DNA from: Ferrovaceae bacterium
GTDB lineage: Bacteria > Pseudomonadota > Gammaproteobacteria > Burkholderiales > Ferrovaceae
Direction of reading: 5' to 3'
Assembly: GCA_027311025.1 (NCBI GenBank)
Contig: DAICZS010000005.1
Span: forward strand, 7,784-71,783
DNA length: 64,000 nucleotides
Part shown: piece after piece, positions 3,028 to 42,179 of the stretch
Layout: every line of letters starts with the position of its first letter
Position numbering within the stretch: position 1 is the first letter of the stretch
Program-made: the position numbers and the translations under genes
The notes under the pieces: model-generated
What the model saw: only the letters and a program-made list of their open reading frames with translations
Database searches by the model: none
What the model was told of the DNA's origin: nothing

Positions 3028-4047
3028 ATGAAAACCACTCTGCCCCGCCTTCAAGACGCTCTGGGCCGCCCCCTTCAGGATCTGAGGATCTCGGTGACGG
3101 ATCGGTGCAATTTTCGCTGTACTTACTGCATGCCAAGGGAAATCTTTGGCCCGGACCATGCCTTTTTGCCCCGGCCAGCGCTGCTCACCTTTGAGGAAAT
3201 CACGCGCGTGGCACGCCTTTTTGCGTCCCTGGGCGTGCACAAGATCCGTCTCACCGGTGGCGAACCGCTGTTGCGTAAACAGGTGGAATCCCTGGTCGCG
3301 CAGCTTTCCAGCATTCCCGGGACGGACCTCACCCTCACCACCAATGGCGCCATCCTTGCCAAAAAGGCGCAGGCCCTGCGGGATGCCGGCCTGAAACGCA
3401 TTACCGTGAGCCTTGATGCCCTGGACGACGCCACCTTCAAGCGCATGAACGACGCCGATTTTACGGTAAAGCAGGTGCTGGAGGGAATCGAAGCTGCCCA
3501 ACTGGCGGGCTTGCAACCCATCAAGGTCAATGCCGTCATCCAGCGCGGGGTCAACGAGCACGCCATCGTGGACCTGGCCCGGCATTTTCGTGGCAGTGGC
3601 ATCATCCTGCGTTTCATCGAGTTCATGGATGTGGGGGCAACCAATGGCTGGCGCCTCGACGACGTGGTGAGTGCCACCGAAATCCAGCAGCGCATTGCCG
3701 CCCACTGGCCTGTAGAACCATTGGAACCCACAGCCCCGGGTGAGGTGGCGGAACGGTACCGTTACGGTGATGGCAGCGGGGAGATTGGCATCATTGCTTC
3801 AGTCACCCGGCCATTTTGTCGCGACTGTTCCCGCATTCGGCTTTCCACCGACGGCAGCCTGTTTACCTGCCTGTTTGCCAGCCATGGTTTTGATCTTAAA
3901 ACCCCGTTGCGGGCAGGCGCGGATGACGCTGCGTTGTTGCAGTCCATATCCAGTTTGTGGCAACACCGGGCAGATCGCTATTCCGAAATTCGTTCTGAAG
4001 CCACACAGGGCCGGCACAAAATCGAAATGTCCTACATCGGAGGATAA
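3028..4047 (+). CDS. moaA: GTP 3',8-cyclase (molybdenum cofactor biosynthesis protein A)
   Basis: 339 aa. Radical-SAM [17 protein letters not shown], and the C-terminal second-cluster region [13 protein letters not shown]. Confidence 0.95.
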
Positions 4048-32500: not shown

Positions 32501-33979
32501 ATGGCCTACGCCGATTTGCGCGAATTTCTGCGCGATCTGGAACAACAGGAACAGTTGCTGCGGGTCACCGAAGCGGTCGACCCACATCTTGAAAGCACCG
32601 CACTCTGCCAGAAAAGCCTGCGTGCTGGCGGGCCTGCCCTGCTGTTCACCAAGCCGCGCCATTCCCGCATGCCGCTTCTGGGTAACCTGTTTGGCAATCC
32701 CCAACGCATTCATGCCGCCCTGCACCATCGTGCCATCCGTTCCTTCCGCGAACTGGGAGAGTTGCTGGCGGCGCTGAAAGAACCCCGCATCCCTCGCGGC
32801 ATGAAGGGCTGGCTGCAGGCCTGGCCCGAGTACGCCCAGCTGGCCTACGCGCGCCCCCGTGAGGCTGGCCATGCTGCCTTTGAGGAGGTGGTCCTGAAAG
32901 GCCCCGATGTGGATCTTGGCCTGCTTCCCATCCAGCACTGTTGGCCCGAAGATGCGGGCAAACTCATCACCTTCGGCCTCGTGGTCACCCGCGGGCTACG
33001 CCAGGAACGCCAGAATGTGGCCATTTACCGTCAGCAGGTCATCGGCCGAAACCGGGTCATCATGCGCTGGCTGGCCCATCGCGGTGGTGCGCTGGATTAT
33101 GCGGACTGGCTGGCACGGCATCCTGACAAGCCTTATCCGGTGATGGTGGTGATCGGCGCCGACCCCTGCACCCTGCTGGCCGCCGTGGCACCGGTGCCCG
33201 ACACGCTGTCCGAATATGAATTTGCCGGGTTGCTGCGCGGAGAATCCACCTTGCTGCGCCGGGGTTACCTGTCAAACCTCGAGGCGCCCGCAGGGGCCGA
33301 GATCGTGCTGGAGGGCTTCATCTATCCCAACGATCGCGCCCTGGAAGGTCCCTTCGGTGACCATACGGGCTATTACAACAGCCAGGCTGAATTTCCCGTG
33401 TTCACCATTGAGCGCATGAGCATGCGCCATGATGCCATTTACCACGGCAGCTACATGGGGCGCGCCCCGCTGGATGAACCCTCGGTGCTGGCGCACGAAC
33501 TCAACGACATTTTCGTGCCGATCCTGACCCGTGTCTTTCCCGAAATCCGTGACTTCTATTTACCCCCAGAAGCCTGTTCCTACCGCATCGCCGTGGTGAG
33601 TCTCTCCAAGCAGTACCCGGGGCATGCCCGACGCATCATGATGGGGATATGGTCCTGGCTGCGGCAGTTTACCTACACCAAATTCGTGATTGTGGTGGAC
33701 GACGACATCGACATCCGAAACTGGTCCGAAATCCTGTGGGCCCTGTCCACGCGCATGGACCCCGTGCGCGATTGCCTGCTTCTGGAGAACACGCCCATCG
33801 ACTACCTGGATTTTGCCAGCCCCGAGGCGGGCCTGGGCGGAAAGATGGGGCTGGATGCCACCAACAAATGGCCCGGTGAAACCCATCGCGCATGGGGACG
33901 CCCCATCGTGCCCGACAGCAACGTCAACGCGCGCATGGAATCCCTGTGGCAACGCATTTTCAAGAAGGAGCCTTCATGA
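32501..33979 (+). CDS. ubiD: UbiD-family (prenyl-FMN-dependent) decarboxylase, 4-hydroxy-3-polyprenylbenzoate decarboxylase-like
   Basis: About 492 aa from ATG 32501 (MAYADLREFLRDLE...). UbiD-type blocks GPALLF, NVAIYR and GDHTGYY. Confidence 0.85.
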   Translation: MAYADLREFLRDLEQQEQLLRVTEAVDPHLESTALCQKSLRAGGPALLFTKPRHSRMPLLGNLFGNPQRIHAALHHRAIRSFRELGELLAALKEPRIPRGMKGWLQAWPEYAQLAYARPREAGHAAFEEVVLKGPDVDLGLLPIQHCWPEDAGKLITFGLVVTRGLRQERQNVAIYRQQVIGRNRVIMRWLAHRGGALDYADWLARHPDKPYPVMVVIGADPCTLLAAVAPVPDTLSEYEFAGLLRGESTLLRRGYLSNLEAPAGAEIVLEGFIYPNDRALEGPFGDHTGYYNSQAEFPVFTIERMSMRHDAIYHGSYMGRAPLDEPSVLAHELNDIFVPILTRVFPEIRDFYLPPEACSYRIAVVSLSKQYPGHARRIMMGIWSWLRQFTYTKFVIVVDDDIDIRNWSEILWALSTRMDPVRDCLLLENTPIDYLDFASPEAGLGGKMGLDATNKWPGETHRAWGRPIVPDSNVNARMESLWQRIFKKEPS

Positions 33980-34977
33980 CCATGGAACTGGTTTGTCCTG
34001 CCGGCAGCCCCGCCGCCCTCACCGCTGCCCTCGAACAGGGCGCTGACGCCATCTATCTGGGGCTGCGTAACCCCACCAATGCCCGTGCCTTTCCCGGACT
34101 GAACTTCGCTCCGGAAAACTTGCGTCTGGCCGTGGATGCCGCCCATGCCCGGGGCAAAAAAATCTATCTGGCCCTCAACACCTATCCCACCTCAGACCAA
34201 ATGGCGTTGTGGAAATCCAGTATCGATATCGCCGCAGAAGCGGGTGTCGATGCCCTCATCATGGCAGAAATGTCGCTGCTCGATTACGCCATCCGCCATC
34301 ACCCGGGCATCCCGCGCCACCTGTCCGTGCAGGGCTCGGCCACGAGTCCTGCAGCGCTGCGGTTTTTCCATGAGCAGTTTGGCATCAGCCGTGCCGTACT
34401 GCCGCGCGTACTCTCGCTGTCCCAGGTGGAACGCGTCTGCGAGAAGTCTCCCGTGGGGATCGAGGTCTTTGCCTTCGGCAGCCTGTGCATCATGGTGGAA
34501 GGTCGCTGCCAGCTGTCGAGTTTCGTCACCGGCCGCTCACCCAACTGTCACGGCGTGTGCTCGCCTGCCGAATACGTTCATTGGGAAGAGCTGCCAGGCG
34601 GGCGACGCCGGGTGCGACTGGGTGAGGTCCTCATCGATGAATTCGACGCGGGAGAATCAGCGAGCTACCCCACGGTGTGCAAGGGCCGCTATCGTGCCGG
34701 CGACACCCCTTTCTATGCCCTCGAGGAGCCCACCAGCCTCAATACGCTCGAACTGCTGCCACGCCTTGCCCAGGCCGGCGTCGTGGCCCTCAAGATCGAA
34801 GGACGTCAGCGTGGGCCCGCCTATGTAGGCAGTGTCACCCGCGTCTGGCGAGAGGCACTCGACACGCTGGAGCGCAAAGAAGGCTTTGTAGTGCGTCCGC
34901 AATGGCAGGAAGCACTGGCCCATGTGGCAGAAGGGCACCAGACCACCCTGGGTCCGTATCATCGGTCCTGGCATTGA
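33976..34977 (+). CDS. ubiU: U32-family protein, ubiquinone O2-independent hydroxylase subunit UbiU-like
   Basis: ATG 33976 (ATGA overlap with ubiD). Exact U32 signature E-x-F-x2-G-[SA]-[LIVM]-C-x4-G-x-C-x-[LIVM]-S, read as EVFAFGSLCIMVEGRCQLS. Further Cys at SPNCHGVC. Confidence 0.75.
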   Translation: MTMELVCPAGSPAALTAALEQGADAIYLGLRNPTNARAFPGLNFAPENLRLAVDAAHARGKKIYLALNTYPTSDQMALWKSSIDIAAEAGVDALIMAEMSLLDYAIRHHPGIPRHLSVQGSATSPAALRFFHEQFGISRAVLPRVLSLSQVERVCEKSPVGIEVFAFGSLCIMVEGRCQLSSFVTGRSPNCHGVCSPAEYVHWEELPGGRRRVRLGEVLIDEFDAGESASYPTVCKGRYRAGDTPFYALEEPTSLNTLELLPRLAQAGVVALKIEGRQRGPAYVGSVTRVWREALDTLERKEGFVVRPQWQEALAHVAEGHQTTLGPYHRSWH

Positions 34978-34990
34978 ACCAGGAGCTTCC

Positions 34991-35896
34991 ATGAAAATCA
35001 GTCTGGGCCCGCTGCAGTATTTCTGGAGAAAATCAGAAGTCATGGATTTTTATCGCGAGGCCGCAAACTGGCCCGTTGATGTGTTCTACCTGGGAGAAAC
35101 GGTCTGTAGCAAGCGCCGGGAGATGCGCCTCAAGGACTGGCTGGAACTGGGTGCCATCCTGGCTGACCAGGGTCGTGAGGTGGTGTTGTCCACGCTGGCC
35201 CTGGTGGAAGCCGAATCGGAGCTGGCCGCCCTGCAACGTCTCGTGGACAACCAGCGATTTGCCGTGGAAGCCAACGATCTTTCCTCGGTACAACTCTGCC
35301 GCGAGCGCGGTGTTCCCTTTGTGGGTGGGCCCACCCTGAACATCTACAATCATGAAACCCTGGCCCTGCTGCAGCGCAGCGGCTTGACCCGCCTGGTACT
35401 GGGGGTAGATCAGGGCGCTCCACAACTGGAAGCGCTGCAGCGACAGGCCCAACTTGCAGGGCACGATTTTCCTGAACTGGAAATTCAGGGTTGGGGCCGG
35501 TTGCCGCTGGCCTACTCCGCGCGCTGCTTCACCGCCCGTGCCCACGATGTGCCCAAAGATGACTGCGGCTTCTGCTGCCTGGAATACCCGGATGGACTAC
35601 CCGTAAGCACCCGAGAGGGACAGCCTTTCCTGACCCTCAACGGCATTCAGGTGCAAAGCACCGCATGTGGTGACCTGGGACCGGAGTTGAATGAACTGGC
35701 AGTCCTTGGTGTGGACATCGTGCGCGTTGCCCCCCAGCGGGAGGGCACTGGCGCGGTGGTGCAGCGGTTTGCCGAAGCGCTGTCGCAAGGGCGGACCGCA
35801 CCACGTCATGGTGACTGCAACGGTTACTGGCACGGTGGTGCCGGCATGGCGCAGATCTCCCCTACCGCAATTTCGATGCAAGTCCCTGGAGCATGA
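34991..35896 (+). CDS. ubiV: U32-family protein, UbiV-like
   Basis: ATG 34991 after AGGAG. Cys pattern GETVCSKR ... ARCFTARAHDVPKDDCGFCC has the spacing I recall for the E. coli UbiV Fe-S ligands. Confidence 0.7.
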   Translation: MKISLGPLQYFWRKSEVMDFYREAANWPVDVFYLGETVCSKRREMRLKDWLELGAILADQGREVVLSTLALVEAESELAALQRLVDNQRFAVEANDLSSVQLCRERGVPFVGGPTLNIYNHETLALLQRSGLTRLVLGVDQGAPQLEALQRQAQLAGHDFPELEIQGWGRLPLAYSARCFTARAHDVPKDDCGFCCLEYPDGLPVSTREGQPFLTLNGIQVQSTACGDLGPELNELAVLGVDIVRVAPQREGTGAVVQRFAEALSQGRTAPRHGDCNGYWHGGAGMAQISPTAISMQVPGA

Positions 35897-36438
35897 TCCT
35901 CATGGCAATTTCAAACCTCCTCATTCCGGAAAACATTCCACCCCAAGTGCTGCGACTGCTTCCTCCTCCCCAGGCATTGAGGCATGGCGTGCGCCTCATC
36001 CCCCAGGAATGGCGGGGCCGCATCCTGACGAAGCTCATGAATAGTCTGGTGGCCAGTGCGCTACCCCCAGAAACGCTGGCCTTTCTGGAGCAACGCCGAC
36101 TGGCCATCGAGGTGGAAGACCTGGGGCTTCGCTGGGTGTTCATGGGTGCAGGAGGAAAACTGCAATCCCTGCCCATAGACACTGCCGCCGAGGTCACGAT
36201 CCGTGGCAAGACGCTCGATCTGCTCTTGCTGGGTAGCCAGTTGGAAGACGCCGATACCCTTTTCTTTCAACGTCGTCTGACCATGACGGGGGACACGGCG
36301 CTGGGCCTGGAAACCCGCAACGTTCTGGACCAACTCCCGTGGGAGCGACTCACGCCGGGATTGCGCATTGCACTCAACCGCATCGCGCGTGTGGCTCAGG
36401 CAGCCCATGAGGTGCGCAGTAAAACATTCCGGAAATGA
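35893..36438 (+). CDS. ubiT: SCP2-domain lipid-binding accessory factor, UbiT-like
   Basis: 181 aa. ATGA overlap with ubiV. SCP2-like C-terminal half (FFQRRLTMTGDTALGLETRNVL). Confidence 0.65.
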   Translation: MILMAISNLLIPENIPPQVLRLLPPPQALRHGVRLIPQEWRGRILTKLMNSLVASALPPETLAFLEQRRLAIEVEDLGLRWVFMGAGGKLQSLPIDTAAEVTIRGKTLDLLLLGSQLEDADTLFFQRRLTMTGDTALGLETRNVLDQLPWERLTPGLRIALNRIARVAQAAHEVRSKTFRK

Positions 36439-36462
36439 CGCCTGATGCAGCACTGTCACAGG

Positions 36463-36846: not shown

Positions 36847-36944
36847 AGGATCGGAACGGGTATCAATGACGCTTTGGGTTTTTGACAATTGCCTGATGGA
36901 TACTATACTTGAAGCAAATCGGCCGGGACAACGCTGGAAGCACC

Positions 36945-38945
36945 ATGCACCTCAACAAGAACAAATTGATCGGTTTTCTGTTGCTGGCGATACTGTCCCA
37001 GAATTCCTTTGCCGTGACGGATGCCGAAGTCTTTTCTTATGCGGCCGCGAATTATCCCAGCCTTTTCACCGGGGCAGCCACCAGTGGACAATTTCAGCAA
37101 TACAGCTACCAATACTACCCTGCCACCGGTAATTATATCGCCGTAGACACCACCGGCACGGTCTATATCCTCGGCCCGGTGGCCACTGATGGCGCGATCA
37201 CTGCAGTTGGTCCTGTCACCGCATTTGCGGCCGCCATCAACTCCTGGCAATCTAACGGCGGAAGTTACCTGCTGAAGCATGCAGGGGTGTACACGTACTT
37301 CGAAGAACGAGGAGGGGCCTCGGGATATTGGCCAGGTCAGTCCATCCAGACCTGGAGTCAATATGATTCCGTGGTCGGAAGCACGGTGGCGCAGGAAGTC
37401 TCACTGCAACTCGACAAGTTAAAGGCAATGGGAGTCAATACCCTCACCATTGACCTACGCACCGCTGATCCAACCGCCACAGGCAATTTCACGCCTCCTG
37501 ACTGCAATGAACCTCCTGTGCTCGGACTCCAGTTTCCCCAACCTACGGCCACCGAACTTGCAAACTTGCCCCTGCTCTTTGATGCTGCGCAGAGCAAAGG
37601 CATGAAAATCTGGCTGCGTTTGGTCAATTCCCATATGGAGCAGTCGCCCCCAACGAACATCCAGACCTGGCTGACAGCCATCCTGGGCGCCATTGGACAA
37701 AAGCCGGCGCTTGATCTGGTGATGTTTGATGGAACCACCTATCTCGTCACCAATGCCAACGGCACGCAAAGTTGTGGCATTCCGGCAGAACCGCCCTTAT
37801 GGTTGGGCCCAACCTCCATTCCTGCGACTTACGTCCAGTGGGCCATTGGATACGCGATGTCCCTGGGCATTCCCGCACAAAAACTATCCGCTGAAGCCGT
37901 TGTGGGTGACTTCTTTCTGGACAGCCAGCCGCCGTCCGGATCAACGGCCACGGACAGCCACCTCTGGTCACCGATTGCAGTCGAGAAAACCATTTTCGAC
38001 AACCTGGGCATTCCCGCAAGTCAACGCACTTACGCCTTGTCCTTCTATGAACACAGAAAATGCTCGGACGCCCAGTCGCTGCCGTGTACAGACACCAATC
38101 CACATGATTGGGCAGACCAAACCTTGCAGAATGTCACCAATGTCGTAGGGTCTGGCCCACGAATCGTCGCCACAGAAATGGGCGATGAAACCCCAGTAGA
38201 CCAGACGAACTGGAACACGCAGCATGCAATGGAAAGCATCGTCTTCCTGCTGCATAAATACGGCATCGATGGCGGCGCATTCTGGCGCTGGACCAGTTTT
38301 TACGACACCGAAGACAAAGACACGACGCTGGCCTCACCGATCAAGCAACGCGGCGTGACGTTTACCTACAATCCCGTACAGAAAGAAATCCTGGACATGG
38401 GGGGGTTTCATGTTTCGCCCATTCCAAACGGCTCGTTTGAGGGTGCCGCAATCGGTGGCGTTCCAGAGGGCTGGACGGTTTCAGGCAGCGGTACGGCTTA
38501 CCAGTATTTATTGACGCAGGAAGGAGCCACACAGCCTGAAGTACCATCCCGGGGGGTGTATGCCATGCGAATCATTACCGGTCCCGCAAGCGCCACCATC
38601 AGTGCCAGCAGCGTCAAGATTCCAGTAACTGCAGCAACCGCCTACACGACGACGGCAAATTTGCGATTTGCCTGGGCGGGTGATCCAGCCGCAGGCACGG
38701 GCCCTTCACTTTCAAGGCCACAGGTATTTGTGTCAGTGCTCTATTATCAGGCAAGCGGTTCTGCCTCGGCCCTGCGTGCGCAGGACTATTACGCGTTCTA
38801 CCAGGAAGACAGCACGACAGGGTTTGGCACATTCCCCATTCAATACACCACGCCAGGCGATGCGGCCTACGTCGTGATCCAGTTTGGTGCATCACGCAAC
38901 GGGCTGGCCACTCCGATCACGCTGGATGTGGATAATGTCCGCTGA
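36945..38945 (+). CDS. hypothetical secreted protein; possible clan GH-A-like glycosidase barrel plus C-terminal CBM-like domain
   Basis: 666 aa from ATG 36945. Signal peptide MHLNKNKLIGFLLLAILSQNSFA. Motifs GVNTLTIDL, NEP, VATEMGDE and FWRW, with a C-terminal NGSFEG...GW beta-sandwich-like module. The function call is weak. Confidence 0.4.
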   Translation: MHLNKNKLIGFLLLAILSQNSFAVTDAEVFSYAAANYPSLFTGAATSGQFQQYSYQYYPATGNYIAVDTTGTVYILGPVATDGAITAVGPVTAFAAAINSWQSNGGSYLLKHAGVYTYFEERGGASGYWPGQSIQTWSQYDSVVGSTVAQEVSLQLDKLKAMGVNTLTIDLRTADPTATGNFTPPDCNEPPVLGLQFPQPTATELANLPLLFDAAQSKGMKIWLRLVNSHMEQSPPTNIQTWLTAILGAIGQKPALDLVMFDGTTYLVTNANGTQSCGIPAEPPLWLGPTSIPATYVQWAIGYAMSLGIPAQKLSAEAVVGDFFLDSQPPSGSTATDSHLWSPIAVEKTIFDNLGIPASQRTYALSFYEHRKCSDAQSLPCTDTNPHDWADQTLQNVTNVVGSGPRIVATEMGDETPVDQTNWNTQHAMESIVFLLHKYGIDGGAFWRWTSFYDTEDKDTTLASPIKQRGVTFTYNPVQKEILDMGGFHVSPIPNGSFEGAAIGGVPEGWTVSGSGTAYQYLLTQEGATQPEVPSRGVYAMRIITGPASATISASSVKIPVTAATAYTTTANLRFAWAGDPAAGTGPSLSRPQVFVSVLYYQASGSASALRAQDYYAFYQEDSTTGFGTFPIQYTTPGDAAYVVIQFGASRNGLATPITLDVDNVR

Positions 38946-38980
38946 CCCCCACCCCTGCATCACGGGATCAAGCCAACGGT

Positions 38981-39160
38981 TCACCCATTTCGATGCGGAA
39001 ATCGTCGCAAGCCCGCGCGCAGAAACTGCAACTGTTTGTTGAAGTTACGGCAGCCGTCGCACACCATCAGGTGAATTCGCAGGCTGGTCTGCCGCCACAA
39101 GCCAAGCTTTTTATCCATGCCCTGCGACATCAACGCGGTAGCCTGTTTACAATTCAGCAT
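38981..39160 (-). CDS. small zinc-binding (ZAS, zf-HC2) anti-sigma factor, no TM segment
   Basis: 59 aa from ATG 39160: MLNCKQATALMS...RIHLMVCDGCRNFNKQ. Shows C-x25-H-x3-C-x2-C. Overlaps the sigma-gene stop by 14 nt (ATG 39175 is the alternative). Confidence 0.75.
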   Translation of the reverse strand: MLNCKQATALMSQGMDKKLGLWRQTSLRIHLMVCDGCRNFNKQLQFLRAGLRRFPHRNG

Positions 39161-39719
39161 CCCGGTCCCCCGCATTAAACCACCGATCATCAAGACAAAG
39201 CCTGAGCGCCATGCGCGCCCGATGCAGTACAACCCAACAATTAGTCGGGCTGATGGCCAATTCCTTACATATTTCTTCGGTATCCAGATCCAGCATCTCG
39301 CGCATCATGAAAACCCGTGCGGTATTTTCGGGTAGGCGCGTCAGACAGATTTCAAATATTTTCCAGAACTGTTGACTGGAAAAACTGCTCTCGGGGTCAC
39401 CCCAAGCCGACGGGCGCGTATCCGCATTCCAGTGATCCCTCTCGTCAAAAAGGTCGTCGTAGGCATTTTCAGGAATTTCTTCCAGGGCTGCCCCTGTACT
39501 GCTAAAGCGGGCGCGTTCACGAATGATGTCAACGATCTTGTTCTTGAGAATGGCAAATACCCAGGTCTTGAGCTGTGCACGATTACCGAATGACTGCTTG
39601 CCAATCAGAACTGCCGCCATGGTCTCCTGCACCGCATCTTCTGCTGAACTTTCGTCACGCAACTGCAACCATGCAAATTTCAGCATGTCACTTCTGAATG
39701 AGATCAGTTCATTTTCCAT
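39147..39719 (-). CDS. ECF-type RNA polymerase sigma-70 factor
   Basis: 190 aa. Region 2 (DAVQETMAAVL...WVFAILKNKIVDIIR) and region 4.2 HTH (EEICKELAISPTNCWVVLHRARMALR). Confidence 0.88.
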   Translation of the reverse strand: MENELISFRSDMLKFAWLQLRDESSAEDAVQETMAAVLIGKQSFGNRAQLKTWVFAILKNKIVDIIRERARFSSTGAALEEIPENAYDDLFDERDHWNADTRPSAWGDPESSFSSQQFWKIFEICLTRLPENTARVFMMREMLDLDTEEICKELAISPTNCWVVLHRARMALRLCLDDRWFNAGDRDAEL

Positions 39720-39825
39720 GGGCGAAGCATAACAATTTTTGAAATCCCTGTAAGGATTCCGCAGGCATTGCGACTAACAAGCGGGGACACATTCTCCGTT
39801 TCAATCAATCCAACCTGAGGAGTTT

Positions 39826-40092
39826 ATGATGAACAATCGTCGCATGATTGCTGCCGCAATGGGAAGTTTGCTGTTACTTGGCCTGGCTAGTAGCAGTGCC
39901 ATGGCGGGTGACAAGCCAGAAATGGAAAAATGCTTTGGTATCGCCAAGGCGGGCAAGAATGACTGCTCCAGCAACAAGAGCGCCCATTCTTGCGCAGGCC
40001 AGGCCACTAAAGACAGGGATCCCATGGATTTTGTCGCAGTGCCCAAGGGAACCTGCGAACGAATCGCTGACGGTCAGTTGAAGAAAATGTAA
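39826..40092 (+). CDS. bufA: DUF2282-family Cys-containing secreted peptide = bufferin-type RiPP precursor (BufA1/GigP-like)
   Basis: 88 aa. GAGGAG SD. Sec signal [27 protein letters not shown]|G. Core motifs [20 protein letters not shown] and VPKGTCE are typical of DUF2282. Confidence 0.85.
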
Positions 40093-40934
40093 TGGAAAAG
40101 CCCGCAACGCACTCCCTGCCATGCGCAGCCGGTATTGGGTTGCGGGCACCTCATTACCTTGAGGTGTTGAATGAACGCCCCCATCTGGGCTGGGTGGAAG
40201 TCCACAGCGAAAACTTTTTCGGTGGTGGCGCACCCTTGAATACCCTGCGCCAGGTGCGTAACCATTATCCGGTCAGTCTGCATGGCGTGGGCATGGGACT
40301 GGCCTCCACCCGGGCTCTGGACCAGACGCATCTGTCGGATTTACGTCGACTGTGTGACATGATCCAACCTGCTGCCGTCTCAGAGCATCTCTGCTGGAAT
40401 GCGTCAGGAGGCTACGTAATCAACGATCTGCTGCCATTTCCTTATACCGAAGAGGCCCTGGCGCATGTGGTGTCTCGCATCGATCACGTTCAGGAAAGAC
40501 TGGACCGCCAGCTTCTGGTGGAGAACCTGTCATCCTATTTATCGTTTAGCCATAGTGAAATGACTGAAGGCGAGTTTATGTCCGAACTGGCAGACCGCAC
40601 AGGATGCGGCATCCTGCTTGACGTCGAAAACCTGTATGTGAACACGTGCAATCTGGGCGTTGACGCCAAAGCCTTTATCGCATCCATCCCGGTTGACGCA
40701 GTAAAGGAATTTCATCTGGCAGGATACAGCGAAAGGAACGGTTGCCTGGTGGACACGCACGACCATCCCGTCAGTACGGAAGTGTGGAGGCTATATGAGT
40801 ACGCGTTACTGCAAATTGGCCCGCGCCCAACCCTGATCGAATGGGACAGTGACATTCCTGCCCTGGGTGTCTTGATGGGTGAGGCGGCAGAGGCGCAGCG
40901 CAGACTGGAGCAGCATGATGTCCAGGCTGCATGA
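40092..40934 (+). CDS. bufB: DUF692 / MNIO (multinuclear non-heme iron oxidase, MbnB-like) RiPP-modifying enzyme
   Basis: 280 aa. TIM-barrel DUF692 blocks GIGLRAPHY, VEVHSENF, SLHGVG, VSEHL, LLVENLS, LLDVENLYVN, EFHLAGY, VDTHDHPV and LIEWD. Start overlaps the bufA stop (TAATG). Confidence 0.88.
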   Translation: MEKPATHSLPCAAGIGLRAPHYLEVLNERPHLGWVEVHSENFFGGGAPLNTLRQVRNHYPVSLHGVGMGLASTRALDQTHLSDLRRLCDMIQPAAVSEHLCWNASGGYVINDLLPFPYTEEALAHVVSRIDHVQERLDRQLLVENLSSYLSFSHSEMTEGEFMSELADRTGCGILLDVENLYVNTCNLGVDAKAFIASIPVDAVKEFHLAGYSERNGCLVDTHDHPVSTEVWRLYEYALLQIGPRPTLIEWDSDIPALGVLMGEAAEAQRRLEQHDVQAA

Positions 40935-41700
40935 CACTCTGTCAGATTTCACTTACTGCATCATCACCGGACTGGGGCTTTCAGATGAAACCACGGCCGT
41001 ATGCCCCAATTATCGCATCGAAACTGCGCTCGATATTTACCGCAATAATTATCGCGGCAACCTCCATGACGCGCTGAGCCATGCCTACCCCGTCATTGAA
41101 CAACTGGTAGGCAAGGACTATTTTCGGTACCTGTCGCGGCATTACGTGGATCGACACCCTTCTGTCAGTGGCAACCTTCATCAGTATGGCGCGGAAATGG
41201 CAGAATTTATTGCCGGCTTTGAATCTGCAAAAGGGCTGGCTTACCTGCCCGACGTTGCCGAACTGGAGTGGGCTTGCCATTGCGCCTATTTTGCGGAAGA
41301 TGCAGGCAAACTCGATGTCATGGCGCTCGCGAAAATCCCACAAGCGCAGTATGCCGACCTGATCCTGAATACGCATCCATCATGCCAGATGGTGCGTTCC
41401 GATTACCCGATTGCGTCCATATGGAATGCACATCAACCTGATGCCGATGGTGACTTCCACGTCACCCTGGATGGCATTCCATCCCATACCCTGGTCAGCC
41501 GGAAGGATCATGCAGTGAAAATCAGTGCGCTCTCTGAACCAGAAGCCACATGGCTGGCGTGGATCCGGTCAGGCGCCTCCCTGGGTAAGTCAACCGATGC
41601 GGCAGTAAATCAATGCGCTGCCTTTGACCTCCATGGCCTGCTGTTGAAATTGATCGATGACGGCGTTTTGATTCACTTTACTTTGAGGAGTACCCCATGA
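40915..41700 (+). CDS. bufC: DUF2063-family protein (MNIO partner / precursor-recognition subunit, BufC-like)
   Basis: About 261 aa from ATG 40915. DUF2063 blocks DIYRNNYRGNL, AYPVIEQLVG..YF and YLPDVAELEWA. 20-nt overlap with bufB. Confidence 0.82.
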   Translation: MMSRLHDTLSDFTYCIITGLGLSDETTAVCPNYRIETALDIYRNNYRGNLHDALSHAYPVIEQLVGKDYFRYLSRHYVDRHPSVSGNLHQYGAEMAEFIAGFESAKGLAYLPDVAELEWACHCAYFAEDAGKLDVMALAKIPQAQYADLILNTHPSCQMVRSDYPIASIWNAHQPDADGDFHVTLDGIPSHTLVSRKDHAVKISALSEPEATWLAWIRSGASLGKSTDAAVNQCAAFDLHGLLLKLIDDGVLIHFTLRSTP

Positions 41701-42179
41701 AAGCACTCTCATGCATGGCCAGGACTTATTACAGGGCATCACACTGGCCGGAATACCTGTCCCCCGTCATGGATCTTGGGCTAAGACTCTATCTTGCCCA
41801 GGTATTCTTCAAATCCGGATTGACAAAGATTTCCAATTGGCAGGGCACGCTATACCTGTTCAATGATGTATATCAGGTGCCGCTTCTGCCGCCGGAGGCC
41901 GCGGCCACCCTGGCGACCAGCGCAGAACTGGGGTTGCCCATATTACTGGTACTGGGTTTGTTGGGCAGATTATCCGCGGCAGGACTATTCATTCTCAATG
42001 CGGTTGCCGTCATTTCATATGCTGATTTAAGCGAGGGAGGCATCAACCAGCATATTTCATGGGGACTGCTACTCGCCGTCCTGCTCACACTCAACCACAA
42101 AAGCTGGTCAATGGATGCCTGGCTGGAAAAGCACCTGCAGGCAGCACCCCGAAAAAAATGCGTTGGTCGAGATGCCTAA
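41697..42179 (+). CDS. bufD: DoxX-family integral membrane protein (BufD-like)
   Basis: 160 aa with about 4 TM helices. DoxX-type RLYLAQVFFKSGLTK start. ATGA overlap with bufC. Confidence 0.8.
   Translation: MKALSCMARTYYRASHWPEYLSPVMDLGLRLYLAQVFFKSGLTKISNWQGTLYLFNDVYQVPLLPPEAAATLATSAELGLPILLVLGLLGRLSAAGLFILNAVAVISYADLSEGGINQHISWGLLLAVLLTLNHKSWSMDAWLEKHLQAAPRKKCVGRDA

Follow-up and report, generated by a model that had tools for sequence, protein, structure and literature searches.

A bufferin-1 precursor gene with a Sec-type signal peptide in a probable bufABCD operon of an uncultured betaproteobacterium

The open reading frame at 39826..40092 on the forward strand of the window, the 64,000 nucleotide stretch of DNA analysed here, is very likely the bufA gene of a canonical bufferin-1 operon, bufABCD, of an uncultured betaproteobacterium. 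It is a genuine though unremarkable member of the published bufferin-1 (DUF2282/BufA1) family, to which bufferin 1 (BufA1/Buf1, CCNA_03363) from the buf1ABCD operon of Caulobacter vibrioides belongs (Leprevost et al., PNAS 2024; PMC11626156). The preliminary description had classed the product among the bufferin-1 RiPP precursors, with a Sec signal and four cysteines in the core, a reading which stands; its further proposal, that the modifying enzyme recognises the precursor by the Sec signal, is not supported in that form. The combination was also called unusual among RiPPs; the feature is genuine but not new, being the headline of the 2024 paper. The finding is already known, since all of it was published in 2024-2025, and it has little significance beyond correct annotation. 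The name bufABCD, for bufferin 1 as a copper-buffering RiPP of the periplasm, suits the locus better than 'uncharacterized membrane protein / UPF0276', and the occurrence of the locus in uncultured Gallionellaceae-like betaproteobacteria fits the published view that bufferins are a metal-stress defence of very wide distribution. The question which the locus touches, by what means a precursor bound for Sec is modified by a cytoplasmic enzyme complex ahead of export, and whether the signal peptide is involved, is already under study in the Caulobacter model, and the sequence of the window gives no special handle on it.

The precursor gene is composed of the following elements, with the basis of each assignment in brackets:
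39817..39822, forward strand: Shine-Dalgarno sequence GAGGAG of bufA (sequence; related loci)
39826..40092, forward strand: bufA, bufferin-1 (DUF2282/BufA1) precursor (PF10048, homologues, gene call)
39826..39906, forward strand: Sec-type signal peptide, residues 1-27, predicted cut A27/G28 (heuristics, conservation)
39907..40089, forward strand: predicted core (mature) peptide, 61 amino acids (translation, conservation)
39931-39933, forward strand: codon of C36 (CysI), context EKCFG
39964-39966, forward strand: codon of C47 (CysII), context NDCSS
39985-39987, forward strand: codon of His54 (translation)
39991-39993, forward strand: codon of C56 (CysIII), context HSCAG
40054-40056, forward strand: codon of C77 (CysIV), context GTCER

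Re-translation of 39826..40092 returned the open reading frame and the 88 amino acid peptide exactly as previously described, with a length inside the 80-120 amino acids of bufferin 1 precursors. The peptide matches PF10048 (DUF2282/BufA1) with 90.7 bits, the gathering score being 22.4 (E=5.8e-26); in Pfam the match spans residues 33-85 and profile positions 1-53 of 53. A word-indexed search found 786 homologues of the peptide and an exhaustive search with it found 1244 representatives at E<=0.001, so that, together with the domain match, the frame is not due to chance. An identical public protein carries the precomputed annotation PF10048:BufA1. The second ATG (39829) is probably the true start, giving 87 amino acids, because GAGGAG lies 6 nt from it and 3 nt from the first ATG, because Met2 aligns with the start methionine in 119/121 close homologues, and because the public gene call for the peptide (P0001) has 87 amino acids. 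Related loci carry AAGGAG or GAGGAG at the equivalent position before bufA. A start at 39829 moves the numbering by one and alters nothing else.

The N-terminus, assessed by simple heuristic measures, has the n-, h- and c-region features expected of a signal peptide, in agreement with the earlier assignment of residues 1-27 to a signal peptide with an A-x-A site and of a 61 amino acid mature peptide starting at G28. The n-region MMNNRR has a charge of +2, the h-region is made of 15 uncharged residues with a mean Kyte-Doolittle hydrophobicity of 2.19, and the c-region SSSAMA has alanine at positions -3 and -1. Alanine at -1 is found in 120/121 close and 96/129 diverse relatives, and a K/R-containing n-region followed by a hydrophobic h-region in 123/130 diverse family members. 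The peptide thus begins with full Sec features and not with a classical leader devoid of them. A heuristic scan of the N-terminus detected neither a lipobox nor a Tat consensus; a lipoprotein, one of the candidate readings, was rejected. No protease or ABC exporter gene was seen in the bufABCD cluster in the ORF listing, Pfam matches or gene calls. For C. vibrioides BufA1, cleavage at the predicted signal-peptidase site was observed by mass spectrometry (PMC11626156).

The core has exactly four cysteines and His54, at the positions and in the contexts given before. Their conservation was determined in 130 diverse DUF2282 members, taken as representatives of clusters at 50% identity, and all four cysteines proved to be 97-100% conserved (C36 131/131, C47 130/131, C56 129/130, C77 127/129 in the column counts), with His54 at about 90% (118/131). 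Exactly four cysteines are present in 112/130 of these relatives, and in 120 close homologues the four cysteines and His54 are invariant. The monoisotopic mass computed for G28-M88 is 6499.07 Da unmodified and 6488.99 Da in the predicted modified form (-10.08 Da). An AF2 model of the precursor from a 40-sequence alignment has residues 33-39 and 68-73 as strands and 53-56 and 76-79 as short helices, an order of secondary structure that may agree with the published Buf1 topology; it adds little, because its pLDDT of 54 denotes low confidence. A PDB search with the precursor gave no sequence match.

Downstream of bufA follow three genes on the same strand:
40092..40934, forward strand: bufB, MNIO (DUF692) bufferin maturase, 280 amino acids (NF050167, PF05114)
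40918..41700, forward strand: bufC, DUF2063 partner, 260 amino acids (PF09836, gene call)
41697..42179, forward strand: bufD, DoxX-family membrane protein, 160 amino acids (PF07681)

The final A of the bufA stop codon TAA (40090-40092) is also the first base of the bufB ATG (TAATG), bufB and bufC have 17 nt in common (in the mechanical ORF listing bufC begins at a GTG, 40879), and the bufD start overlaps the bufC stop in the 4-nt ATGA; these overlaps are compatible with a single operon. BufB matches the NF050167 MNIO_BufB equivalog with 367.9 bits (cutoff 310) and PF05114 with E=2.6e-103, and in the PDB finds 3bww at 1e-34 and MbnB at 2e-9. BufC matches PF09836 (DUF2063) with 74.5 bits against 27.2 (E=8.2e-21) and gave no sequence match in the PDB; an HvfC-family profile aligns to its residues 48-245 below the equivalog cutoff, which suggests, at the level of sequence, a C-domain homologous to that of HvfC. 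BufD matches PF07681 (E=2.7e-18), like BufC above the Pfam gathering score, and, below cutoff, the HvfX family. Among 79 species-level loci, bufB is directly 3' of bufA in 75. The small cysteine-rich ORF of related loci is absent from the window.

Upstream of bufA are found a regulator pair on the opposite strand and the putative control elements:
39147..39719, reverse strand: ECF sigma factor gene, divergent from bufA (TIGR02943, Pfam)
38981..39190, reverse strand: zf-HC2 (zinc-binding) anti-sigma gene, 69 amino acids as called (PF13490, NF052368)
39749..39776, forward strand: inferred ECF-type promoter-like motif TGTAAGGA-N14-CGACTA (motif scan, related loci)
39242..39269, reverse strand: second copy of the ECF motif (TGTAAGGAATTGGCCATCAGCCCGACTA) within the 3' portion of the sigma coding sequence and ahead of the anti-sigma gene (motif scan)
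39779..39801, forward strand: hairpin or inverted repeat AAGCGGGGA-cacat-TCTCCGTTT, just past the -10 element (shuffle test)

The sigma factor matches TIGR02943 with 243 bits (cutoff 162) and Pfam Sigma70_r2 and r4_2. The anti-sigma gene, which overlaps the end of the sigma gene, encodes a PF13490 protein (NF052368, 75.8 bits, cutoff 50) with the motif H-x3-C-x2-C and no transmembrane segment visible by eye. Clusters of the Caulobacter type have the membrane anti-sigma NrsF (DUF1109) where the window has this zf-HC2 protein, a regulatory variant which leaves the family membership of the precursor unaffected; as the pair is unlike that of the Caulobacter model, the inducing signal may differ.

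The ECF motif has two matches in the window where 0.00 are expected. Upstream of bufA it recurs in 24/80 loci, with its end in most of them 43-54 nt from the start codon, and resembles the C. crescentus SigF site GTAACC-N16-CGAA (PMC3511200). The motif bases of the second copy are invariant in four related loci (L007, L016, L032, L038) while third-codon positions of the spacer vary, and the residue encoded over its 'CG' varies (P/S/T). Candidate sources of a promoter consensus included C. metallidurans gig/RpoQ, which was rejected for lack of a match, the RpoQ sigma being of the ECF16 type. A scan of the locus for sigma-70 promoters and terminators gave no excess over shuffles.

The hairpin is conserved and probably sits at the 5' terminus of the buf transcript. 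When the 5' UTRs were aligned with MAFFT and given to RNAalifold, no pairs were predicted, since loops of unequal length throw the arms out of register; a hairpin test of each sequence against shuffles was used in its place. A stem of at least 5 bp occurs at the site in 22/24 loci, whereas shuffles gave 9.5 and, in 500 of them, at most 16; the mean MFE is -10.0 against -4.6 kcal/mol. The UTR of the window folded alone is not significant (z=0.31), and an Rfam scan of 38900-40200 returned solely a sub-threshold chance match to P10 sRNA (E=0.26). The stem sequences differ among loci.

The gene, its domain, cysteine pattern, signal-peptide features and operon, and the conservation of these, come from the sequence analysis; the chemistry, export and function proposed for the window peptide follow, by homology, those of the experimentally studied C. 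vibrioides protein. The ECF sigma factor, once metal or thiol stress has freed it from the small zinc-finger anti-sigma, would transcribe bufABCD from the 39749..39776 motif. In the cytoplasm a complex of BufB, the MNIO iron oxidase, and BufC, with its DUF2063 and RRE-like parts, would bind the precursor mainly via the folded DUF2282 core and oxidise the central C47 and C56 to 5-thiooxazole heterocycles. The Sec signal peptide would then carry the modified peptide through SecYEG, signal peptidase I would cut after A27, and the outer C36 and C77 would form a disulfide in the periplasm. The 61-residue product may chelate Cu(I)/Cu(II) via its thiooxazoles and so buffer excess periplasmic copper. 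The statement in the preliminary description that in bufferin 1 the central cysteines are heterocyclised and the outer pair forms a disulfide agrees with the publication (PMC11626156), in which CysII and CysIII of C. vibrioides Buf1 become 5-thiooxazoles and CysI-CysIV a disulfide; the roles assigned here to C47/C56 and C36-C77 are predicted from it.

It is less easy to say how the precursor is recognised. BufB and BufC might, through the RRE-like domain of BufC, recognise the Sec signal peptide itself as the RiPP leader, which would also keep it hidden from Sec as long as modification lasts; this reading concerns the recognition step only, is otherwise compatible with the pathway above, and we consider it possible though unlikely. 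Signal-peptide-bearing precursors correlate strictly with PME-type-1 (DUF2063) partners, and preliminary results of the group that characterised bufferin 1 make the signal peptide part of the recognition sequence (PMC12452194); that a leader overlaps the signal peptide under natural conditions was not excluded by the original study (PMC11626156). In the alignments Ala11 is an unusually conserved column of the signal peptide (108/127 diverse relatives), and the h-region is near-invariant inside the close subfamily. However, in the sole published test BufA1 without its whole signal peptide was fully modified (-10 Da) when co-expressed with BufB1/BufC1 in E. coli (PMC11626156), a result which tells against the Sec signal as the enzyme's recognition element, and the related FonA system required no single residue ahead of the core. 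The signal peptide is also far less conserved than the core, with identities to the query of 0.28 vs 0.55 in diverse and 0.63 vs 0.86 in close relatives and a mean column entropy of 2.64 vs 1.58 bits, and has no outstanding motif beyond Ala11 and the A-x-A site; judged from these alignments, it evolves as ordinary signal peptides do. Recognition mainly via the core is thus the preferred reading, with its basis in an overexpression experiment in a heterologous host and with the preliminary data of the same authors in conflict with it.

Three other readings of export and modification were weighed. The twin arginines of NRRM (residues 4-7) could belong to a Tat signal, the folded modified peptide leaving via TatABC, and such a route would suit a small protein that leaves the cytoplasm already modified and perhaps folded. 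Yet the RR at residues 5-6 is not conserved, position 6 being H, R or Q in close homologues; of the 130 diverse members just 6 have RR and none the [ST]RRxF consensus, and the short h-region has the strong hydrophobicity (the 2.19 above) that is typical of Sec. The BufA1 signal peptide, moreover, exported beta-lactamase in Caulobacter, and its export is called Sec-dependent by the authors (PMC11626156). Tat export was accordingly rejected as hardly credible, the RR of the window sequence being present by chance and the consensus before a weak h-region lacking. Equally little can be said for an uncleaved signal anchor, which would make the product a small membrane protein: there is a single hydrophobic segment, N-terminal, and the old Pfam text for DUF2282 ('predicted integral membrane protein') and the JGI name 'uncharacterized membrane protein' point that way, but the h-region has just 15 residues before a polar c-region with alanine at -3 and -1, a residue kept across the family, the cleaved Buf1 core was seen by mass spectrometry (PMC11626156), and the Pfam family has since been renamed BufA1. 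It is very improbable, finally, that the peptide leaves the cytoplasm without modification and serves in the periplasm as a simple metal-binding Cys/His protein, beside an MNIO that is inactive or acts elsewhere. DUF2282 genes do stand without an MNIO gene at loci L028, L032 and L068, and a sizeable share of precursor genes is unlinked to one (PMC12452194); here, however, bufA is translationally coupled to a full-length bufB above the equivalog cutoff and then bufC, the bufA-bufB order is kept in 75/79 loci, and in Caulobacter modification and copper protection need BufB as well as BufC, and the two together suffice for them (PMC11626156).

Two further readings may also be put forward, which we hold to be rather unlikely: one is that the signal peptide of DUF2282 precursors, for example by Ala11 and the h-region, aids BufB/BufC binding and delays engagement with Sec until the thiooxazoles are installed, as a signal and leader in one; the other is that this betaproteobacterial subgroup controls its bufferin operon by a circuit not described before, made up of a soluble zinc-finger anti-sigma, an ECF promoter inside the sigma coding sequence driving the anti-sigma gene (negative feedback) and a conserved hairpin at the 5' terminus of the buf mRNA. 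Neither reading alters what the peptide is.

Compared with Buf1, the window peptide has the same DUF2282/BufA1 family, a Sec-type signal peptide, four conserved cysteines and the same flanks, D before CysII and S-CysIII-A. The cysteine spacing is nearly the same, 11/9/21 against 11/8/21, the latter from the published numbering (CysI=12, CysII=23, CysIII=31, CysIV=52; PMC11626156) and not from a direct alignment. The gene order bufA, bufB (MNIO), bufC (DUF2063), bufD (DoxX) is that of buf1ABCD, and both have an adjacent ECF sigma/anti-sigma pair and a similar-shaped promoter (GTAA..-N-CGA.). The differences are a core of 61 instead of 68 amino acids, CysI at residue 9 of the core where Buf1 has it at 12, a CysII-CysIII loop longer by one residue, Ser in place of Lys after CysII, the small zf-HC2 in place of the membrane protein NrsF, and a sigma factor of the TIGR02943 family. 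The window member is known from sequence, while Buf1 has been studied experimentally; Cu(I)/Cu(II) binding and protection from copper stress are known only for C. vibrioides Buf1 and Buf2 (PMC11626156).

Bufferin 2 (BUF_6/12Cys) of C. vibrioides shares the MNIO and DUF2063 pair and the Sec signal peptide, and also the central thiooxazoles, outer disulfide and copper protection that are predicted for the window peptide, but is of another precursor family with 6 or 12 cysteines instead of the four of this DUF2282 peptide, and its clusters have neither DoxX nor sigma/anti-sigma genes (PMC12452194). The EGKCG-repeat 'captophorins', which are oxazolin (HvfA), fontiphorin and gonophorin (PMC11252979; bioRxiv 10.1101/2025.11.18.689057), have the related HvfB (MNIO), HvfC (DUF2063) and HvfX (DoxX-like), whose NCBIfam cutoffs the window proteins do not reach, as well as signal-peptide-bearing precursors and the 5-thiooxazole chemistry and copper binding predicted here; they differ by unstructured repeats with many modified cysteines from the single folded DUF2282 domain of the window, of which two cysteines are predicted to be modified. 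The lipoprotein RiPPs Chryseobasin/DybA (PMC13056109) are likewise modified by an MNIO and secreted by a general signal, with no dedicated exporter, and recognition is via a core motif and not the N-terminus; unlike the lipobox-free window peptide, they carry signal peptidase II (lipobox) signals and have a different chemistry. In methanobactin (MbnA/MbnB/MbnC) an MNIO also turns cysteines of a ribosomal peptide into a copper-binding heterocycle, and MbnB is a distant homologue of BufB (E about 2e-9), but the precursor has a classical leader and no signal peptide, the partner MbnC is not a DUF2063 protein, and the oxazolone/thioamide products leave by a dedicated exporter and serve copper acquisition instead of buffering.

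The gene cluster around bufA is a bufferin-1 cluster of the standard type reported by Leprevost et al. (PNAS 2024, PMC11626156). It is composed of the following features, given in window coordinates where these apply:

38981-39190, reverse strand: zf-HC2 anti-sigma gene (59-69 aa, H-x3-C-x2-C)
39242-39269, reverse strand: ECF promoter-like motif, copy 2, inside the sigma gene towards its 3' end, upstream of the anti-sigma gene
Upstream of bufA, divergent: ECF sigma factor gene, TIGR02943 family
39749-39776, forward strand: ECF promoter-like motif, copy 1, 50 nt upstream of bufA
39779-39801, forward strand: hairpin or inverted repeat, adjoining the -10 element of the bufA promoter on its downstream side
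39826-40092, forward strand: bufA, bufferin-1 precursor
Downstream of bufA: bufB, MNIO maturase (280 aa), whose ATG shares a base with the bufA stop codon
Next: bufC, DUF2063 partner (260 aa), with a 17-nt overlap with bufB
Next: bufD, DoxX protein (160 aa), with an ATGA overlap with bufC

The bufA ORF has 88 codons, and its translation is identical to that of the preliminary description, including exactly four cysteines at positions 36 (EKCFG), 47 (NDCSS), 56 (HSCAG) and 77 (GTCER) and a histidine at 54. The start is probably the second ATG (39829), since the Shine-Dalgarno sequence GAGGAG (39817-39822) lies 6 nt before it and only 3 nt before the first ATG, Met2 aligns with the initiator methionine of 119 out of 121 close homologues, and the gene calls for the identical public protein are of 87 aa.

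The product matches the full profile of Pfam PF10048 (DUF2282; E=5.8e-26), and PF10048:BufA1 is also its precomputed label on identical public contigs (MAG assemblies GCA_027307875.1, GCA_027307865.1 and GCA_027307915.1, plus SRA runs); BufA1 and BufB models are now present in Pfam and NCBIfam. A word-indexed protein search yielded 786 homologues, and when 1.84 billion cluster representatives were searched exhaustively, 1244 had E<=0.001 and 367 E<=1e-10. Judged by its sequence relatives, bufA is more than a chance ORF. The four cysteines and His54 are invariant in 120 close homologues (68-100% identity). In a diverse set of 130 sequences, each representing a 50%-identity cluster and sharing 39-75% identity with the window peptide, the cysteine columns are nearly invariant (C36 131/131, C47 130/131, C56 129/130, C77 127/129); the His54 column holds in 118/131, and 112 of the 130 have exactly four cysteines. 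The family motif reads E-K-C-[YF]-G-[VI]-A-K-A-G-x-N-D-C ... H-[SA]-C-A-G ... G-x-C.

The bufB product is assigned to the NF050167 equivalog 'MNIO family bufferin maturase' (367.9 bits, cutoff 310) and matches Pfam MbnB_TglH_ChrH at E=2.6e-103; its nearest solved relative is the DUF692 protein 3bww (1e-34), MbnB being distant (2e-9). The DUF2063 domain of the bufC product is recognised by Pfam at E=8.2e-21, and an HvfC-family profile aligns, below its equivalog cutoff, to its residues 48-245. One genome per species was scanned, which gave 577 relatives. In 75 of the 79 best loci bufB directly follows bufA, usually with bufC and bufD next; for the most part these loci lie in betaproteobacterial MAGs (Burkholderiales, Gallionella, Sideroxydans, Ca. 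Nitrotoga) and in gammaproteobacteria. Among the related loci (L numbers), a few have a DUF2282 gene without a neighbouring MNIO gene: in L028, L032 and L068 it is solitary, and in L059 only DoxX adjoins it. This is consistent with a published note that not all precursors are linked to their maturase.

DUF2282 precursors are described as having 80-120 aa, four cysteines and a predicted Sec signal (PMC11626156). In Buf1 of Caulobacter vibrioides, CysII (Cys23) and CysIII (Cys31) lose 4.03 Da each and are 5-thiooxazoles by NMR, CysI (Cys12) and CysIV (Cys52) form a disulfide, BufB1 and BufC1 are necessary and sufficient for modification while DoxX is dispensable, and the product has a KD of ~6e-15 M for Cu(II) and confers copper protection (PMC11626156). 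The preliminary description of bufferin 1, with the two central cysteines heterocyclised and the outer pair disulfide-bonded, agrees with these data. Cysteine spacing is 11/9/21 in the window peptide and 11/8/21 in Buf1, the difference of one residue falling in a loop (columns 51-52) with indels in about half of the family. Both peptides have Asp before CysII and Ser and Ala flanking CysIII. An AF2 model of low confidence (pLDDT 54), to which little weight is given, predicts strands 33-39 and 68-73 and short helices 53-56 and 76-79, the same arrangement as published for Buf1, where the first strand holds CysI and a short helix holds CysIV. By homology, stress would free the ECF sigma factor and the operon would be transcribed; in the cytoplasm, BufB and BufC would convert C47 and C56 into thiooxazoles by oxidation; Sec export and a signal peptidase I cut after A27 would be followed by formation of the C36-C77 disulfide in the periplasm, and the mature product would chelate copper.

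A rule-based check found all regions of the textbook Sec signal peptide that had been proposed: an n-region MMNNRR of net charge +2, an h-region of 15 uncharged residues with mean Kyte-Doolittle hydrophobicity 2.19, and a polar c-region SSSAMA whose positions -3 and -1 are Ala. A cut after A27 would yield the proposed 61 residues (calculated monoisotopic mass 6499.07 Da, pI 8.4; 6488.99 Da with the predicted modifications). [quoted passage not shown] Tat export, prompted by Arg-Arg at 5-6, was rejected on the strongly hydrophobic h-region, RR being present in 6 of 130 relatives and the Tat consensus in none (0/130). A lipoprotein was rejected as there is no lipobox.

The observation on bufA is confirmed, and of its interpretation the identity and the chemistry stand, while the Sec signal as recognition element for a cytoplasmic enzyme is unproven and partly contradicted. 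Upon co-expression in E. coli, BufA1 from which eight signal-peptide residues or the entire signal peptide had been removed still gave the -10 Da product, the authors leaving it possible that a leader overlaps the signal peptide under natural conditions (PMC11626156). The signal is also poorly conserved: mean identity to the window peptide is 0.28 over residues 2-27 versus 0.55 over the DUF2282 core (34-85) in the diverse set, and 0.63 versus 0.86 in the close set, with a mean column entropy of 2.64 versus 1.58 bits. Besides generic features and the A-x-A site, only Ala11 stands out (108/127, diverse set), and in these alignments the bufA signal peptide evolves like ordinary signal peptides. 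A dual role, in which the Sec signal is also recognised by BufB/BufC, is favoured by a 2025 survey of the same group (PMC12452194), where precursors with signal peptides are always paired with DUF2063-type partners and preliminary results are mentioned that place the signal peptide within the recognition sequence. On this evidence we consider a dual role possible but rather unlikely; no feature of the window bears specially on the question. The Sec signal in place of a leader, the four-Cys core, the thiooxazoles and disulfide and copper binding are already known (PMC11626156, 2024; PMC12452194, 2025), and signal peptides are used by other MNIO RiPPs too (oxazolin, fontiphorin, lipoprotein RiPPs).

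The promoter-like motif TGTAAGG-N15-CGACTA has exactly two matches in the 64-kb window (0.00 expected from shuffles). In 24 of 80 loci copy 1 recurs upstream of bufA, and its distance from the gene hardly varies; it resembles the Caulobacter SigF site GTAACC-N16-CGAA (PMC3511200). Four other species (L007, L016, L032, L038) also conserve the intragenic copy 2 as a DNA sequence, with variation at third-codon positions of the spacer. As the motif bases are invariant while the overlapping 'CG' codon encodes Pro, Ser or Thr, the sequences suggest that copy 2 lets the sigma factor drive the anti-sigma gene, which would amount to negative feedback. In the small window zf-HC2 anti-sigma no transmembrane segment was seen by eye, in distinction to NrsF, the six-helix membrane protein known from Caulobacter and listed for Buf1 clusters in PMC12452194; sensing of the inducing signal may thus be cytoplasmic.

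In 22 of the 24 loci (e.g. L041:3949-3970, L064:2564-2578) the first 28 nt contain a hairpin stem of 5 bp or more, versus 9.5 expected (maximum 16, 500 shuffles), with a mean MFE of -10.0 versus -4.6 kcal/mol; both frequency and stability significantly exceed those of the shuffles. Stem sequences vary by locus (GGGGA/TCTCC, TGGAG/CTCCA, GGTGG/CCACC, GTGGA/TCCAC), and the bufA hairpin has no Rfam match. It may be a 5'-terminal stabilising mRNA stem-loop or a palindromic operator.

Some related loci carry a Cys-rich ORF of ~40 codons (e.g. MSLMCSMDGCKQKGGMCIHEKMMLGVLVIIAVGSAVMWLK) between sigma gene and bufA, on the forward strand in L007:3310-3432, L016:~3680-3810 and L032:~3700-3820 and on the opposite strand in L017 and L021; a search of the window did not find it. 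Its N-terminal part has conserved Cys/His residues, its tail is hydrophobic, and it is accompanied by a TGTAAGGA..CGACTA motif of its own; it may be a further member of the ECF regulon.

Directly upstream of the anti-sigma gene, window 36909-38945 (forward strand) encodes a 666-678-aa protein with a signal-like N-terminus (MHLNKNKLIGFLLLAILSQNSFA) and without Pfam match at E<=0.01, present, among the related loci examined, in same-species contigs only. At ~33900-36440 (forward strand), downstream of a UbiD-family gene, precomputed Pfam labels on the identical contigs give two Peptidase_U32 genes and an SCP2 gene, an arrangement resembling UbiU/UbiV/UbiT, the set that makes ubiquinone without oxygen.
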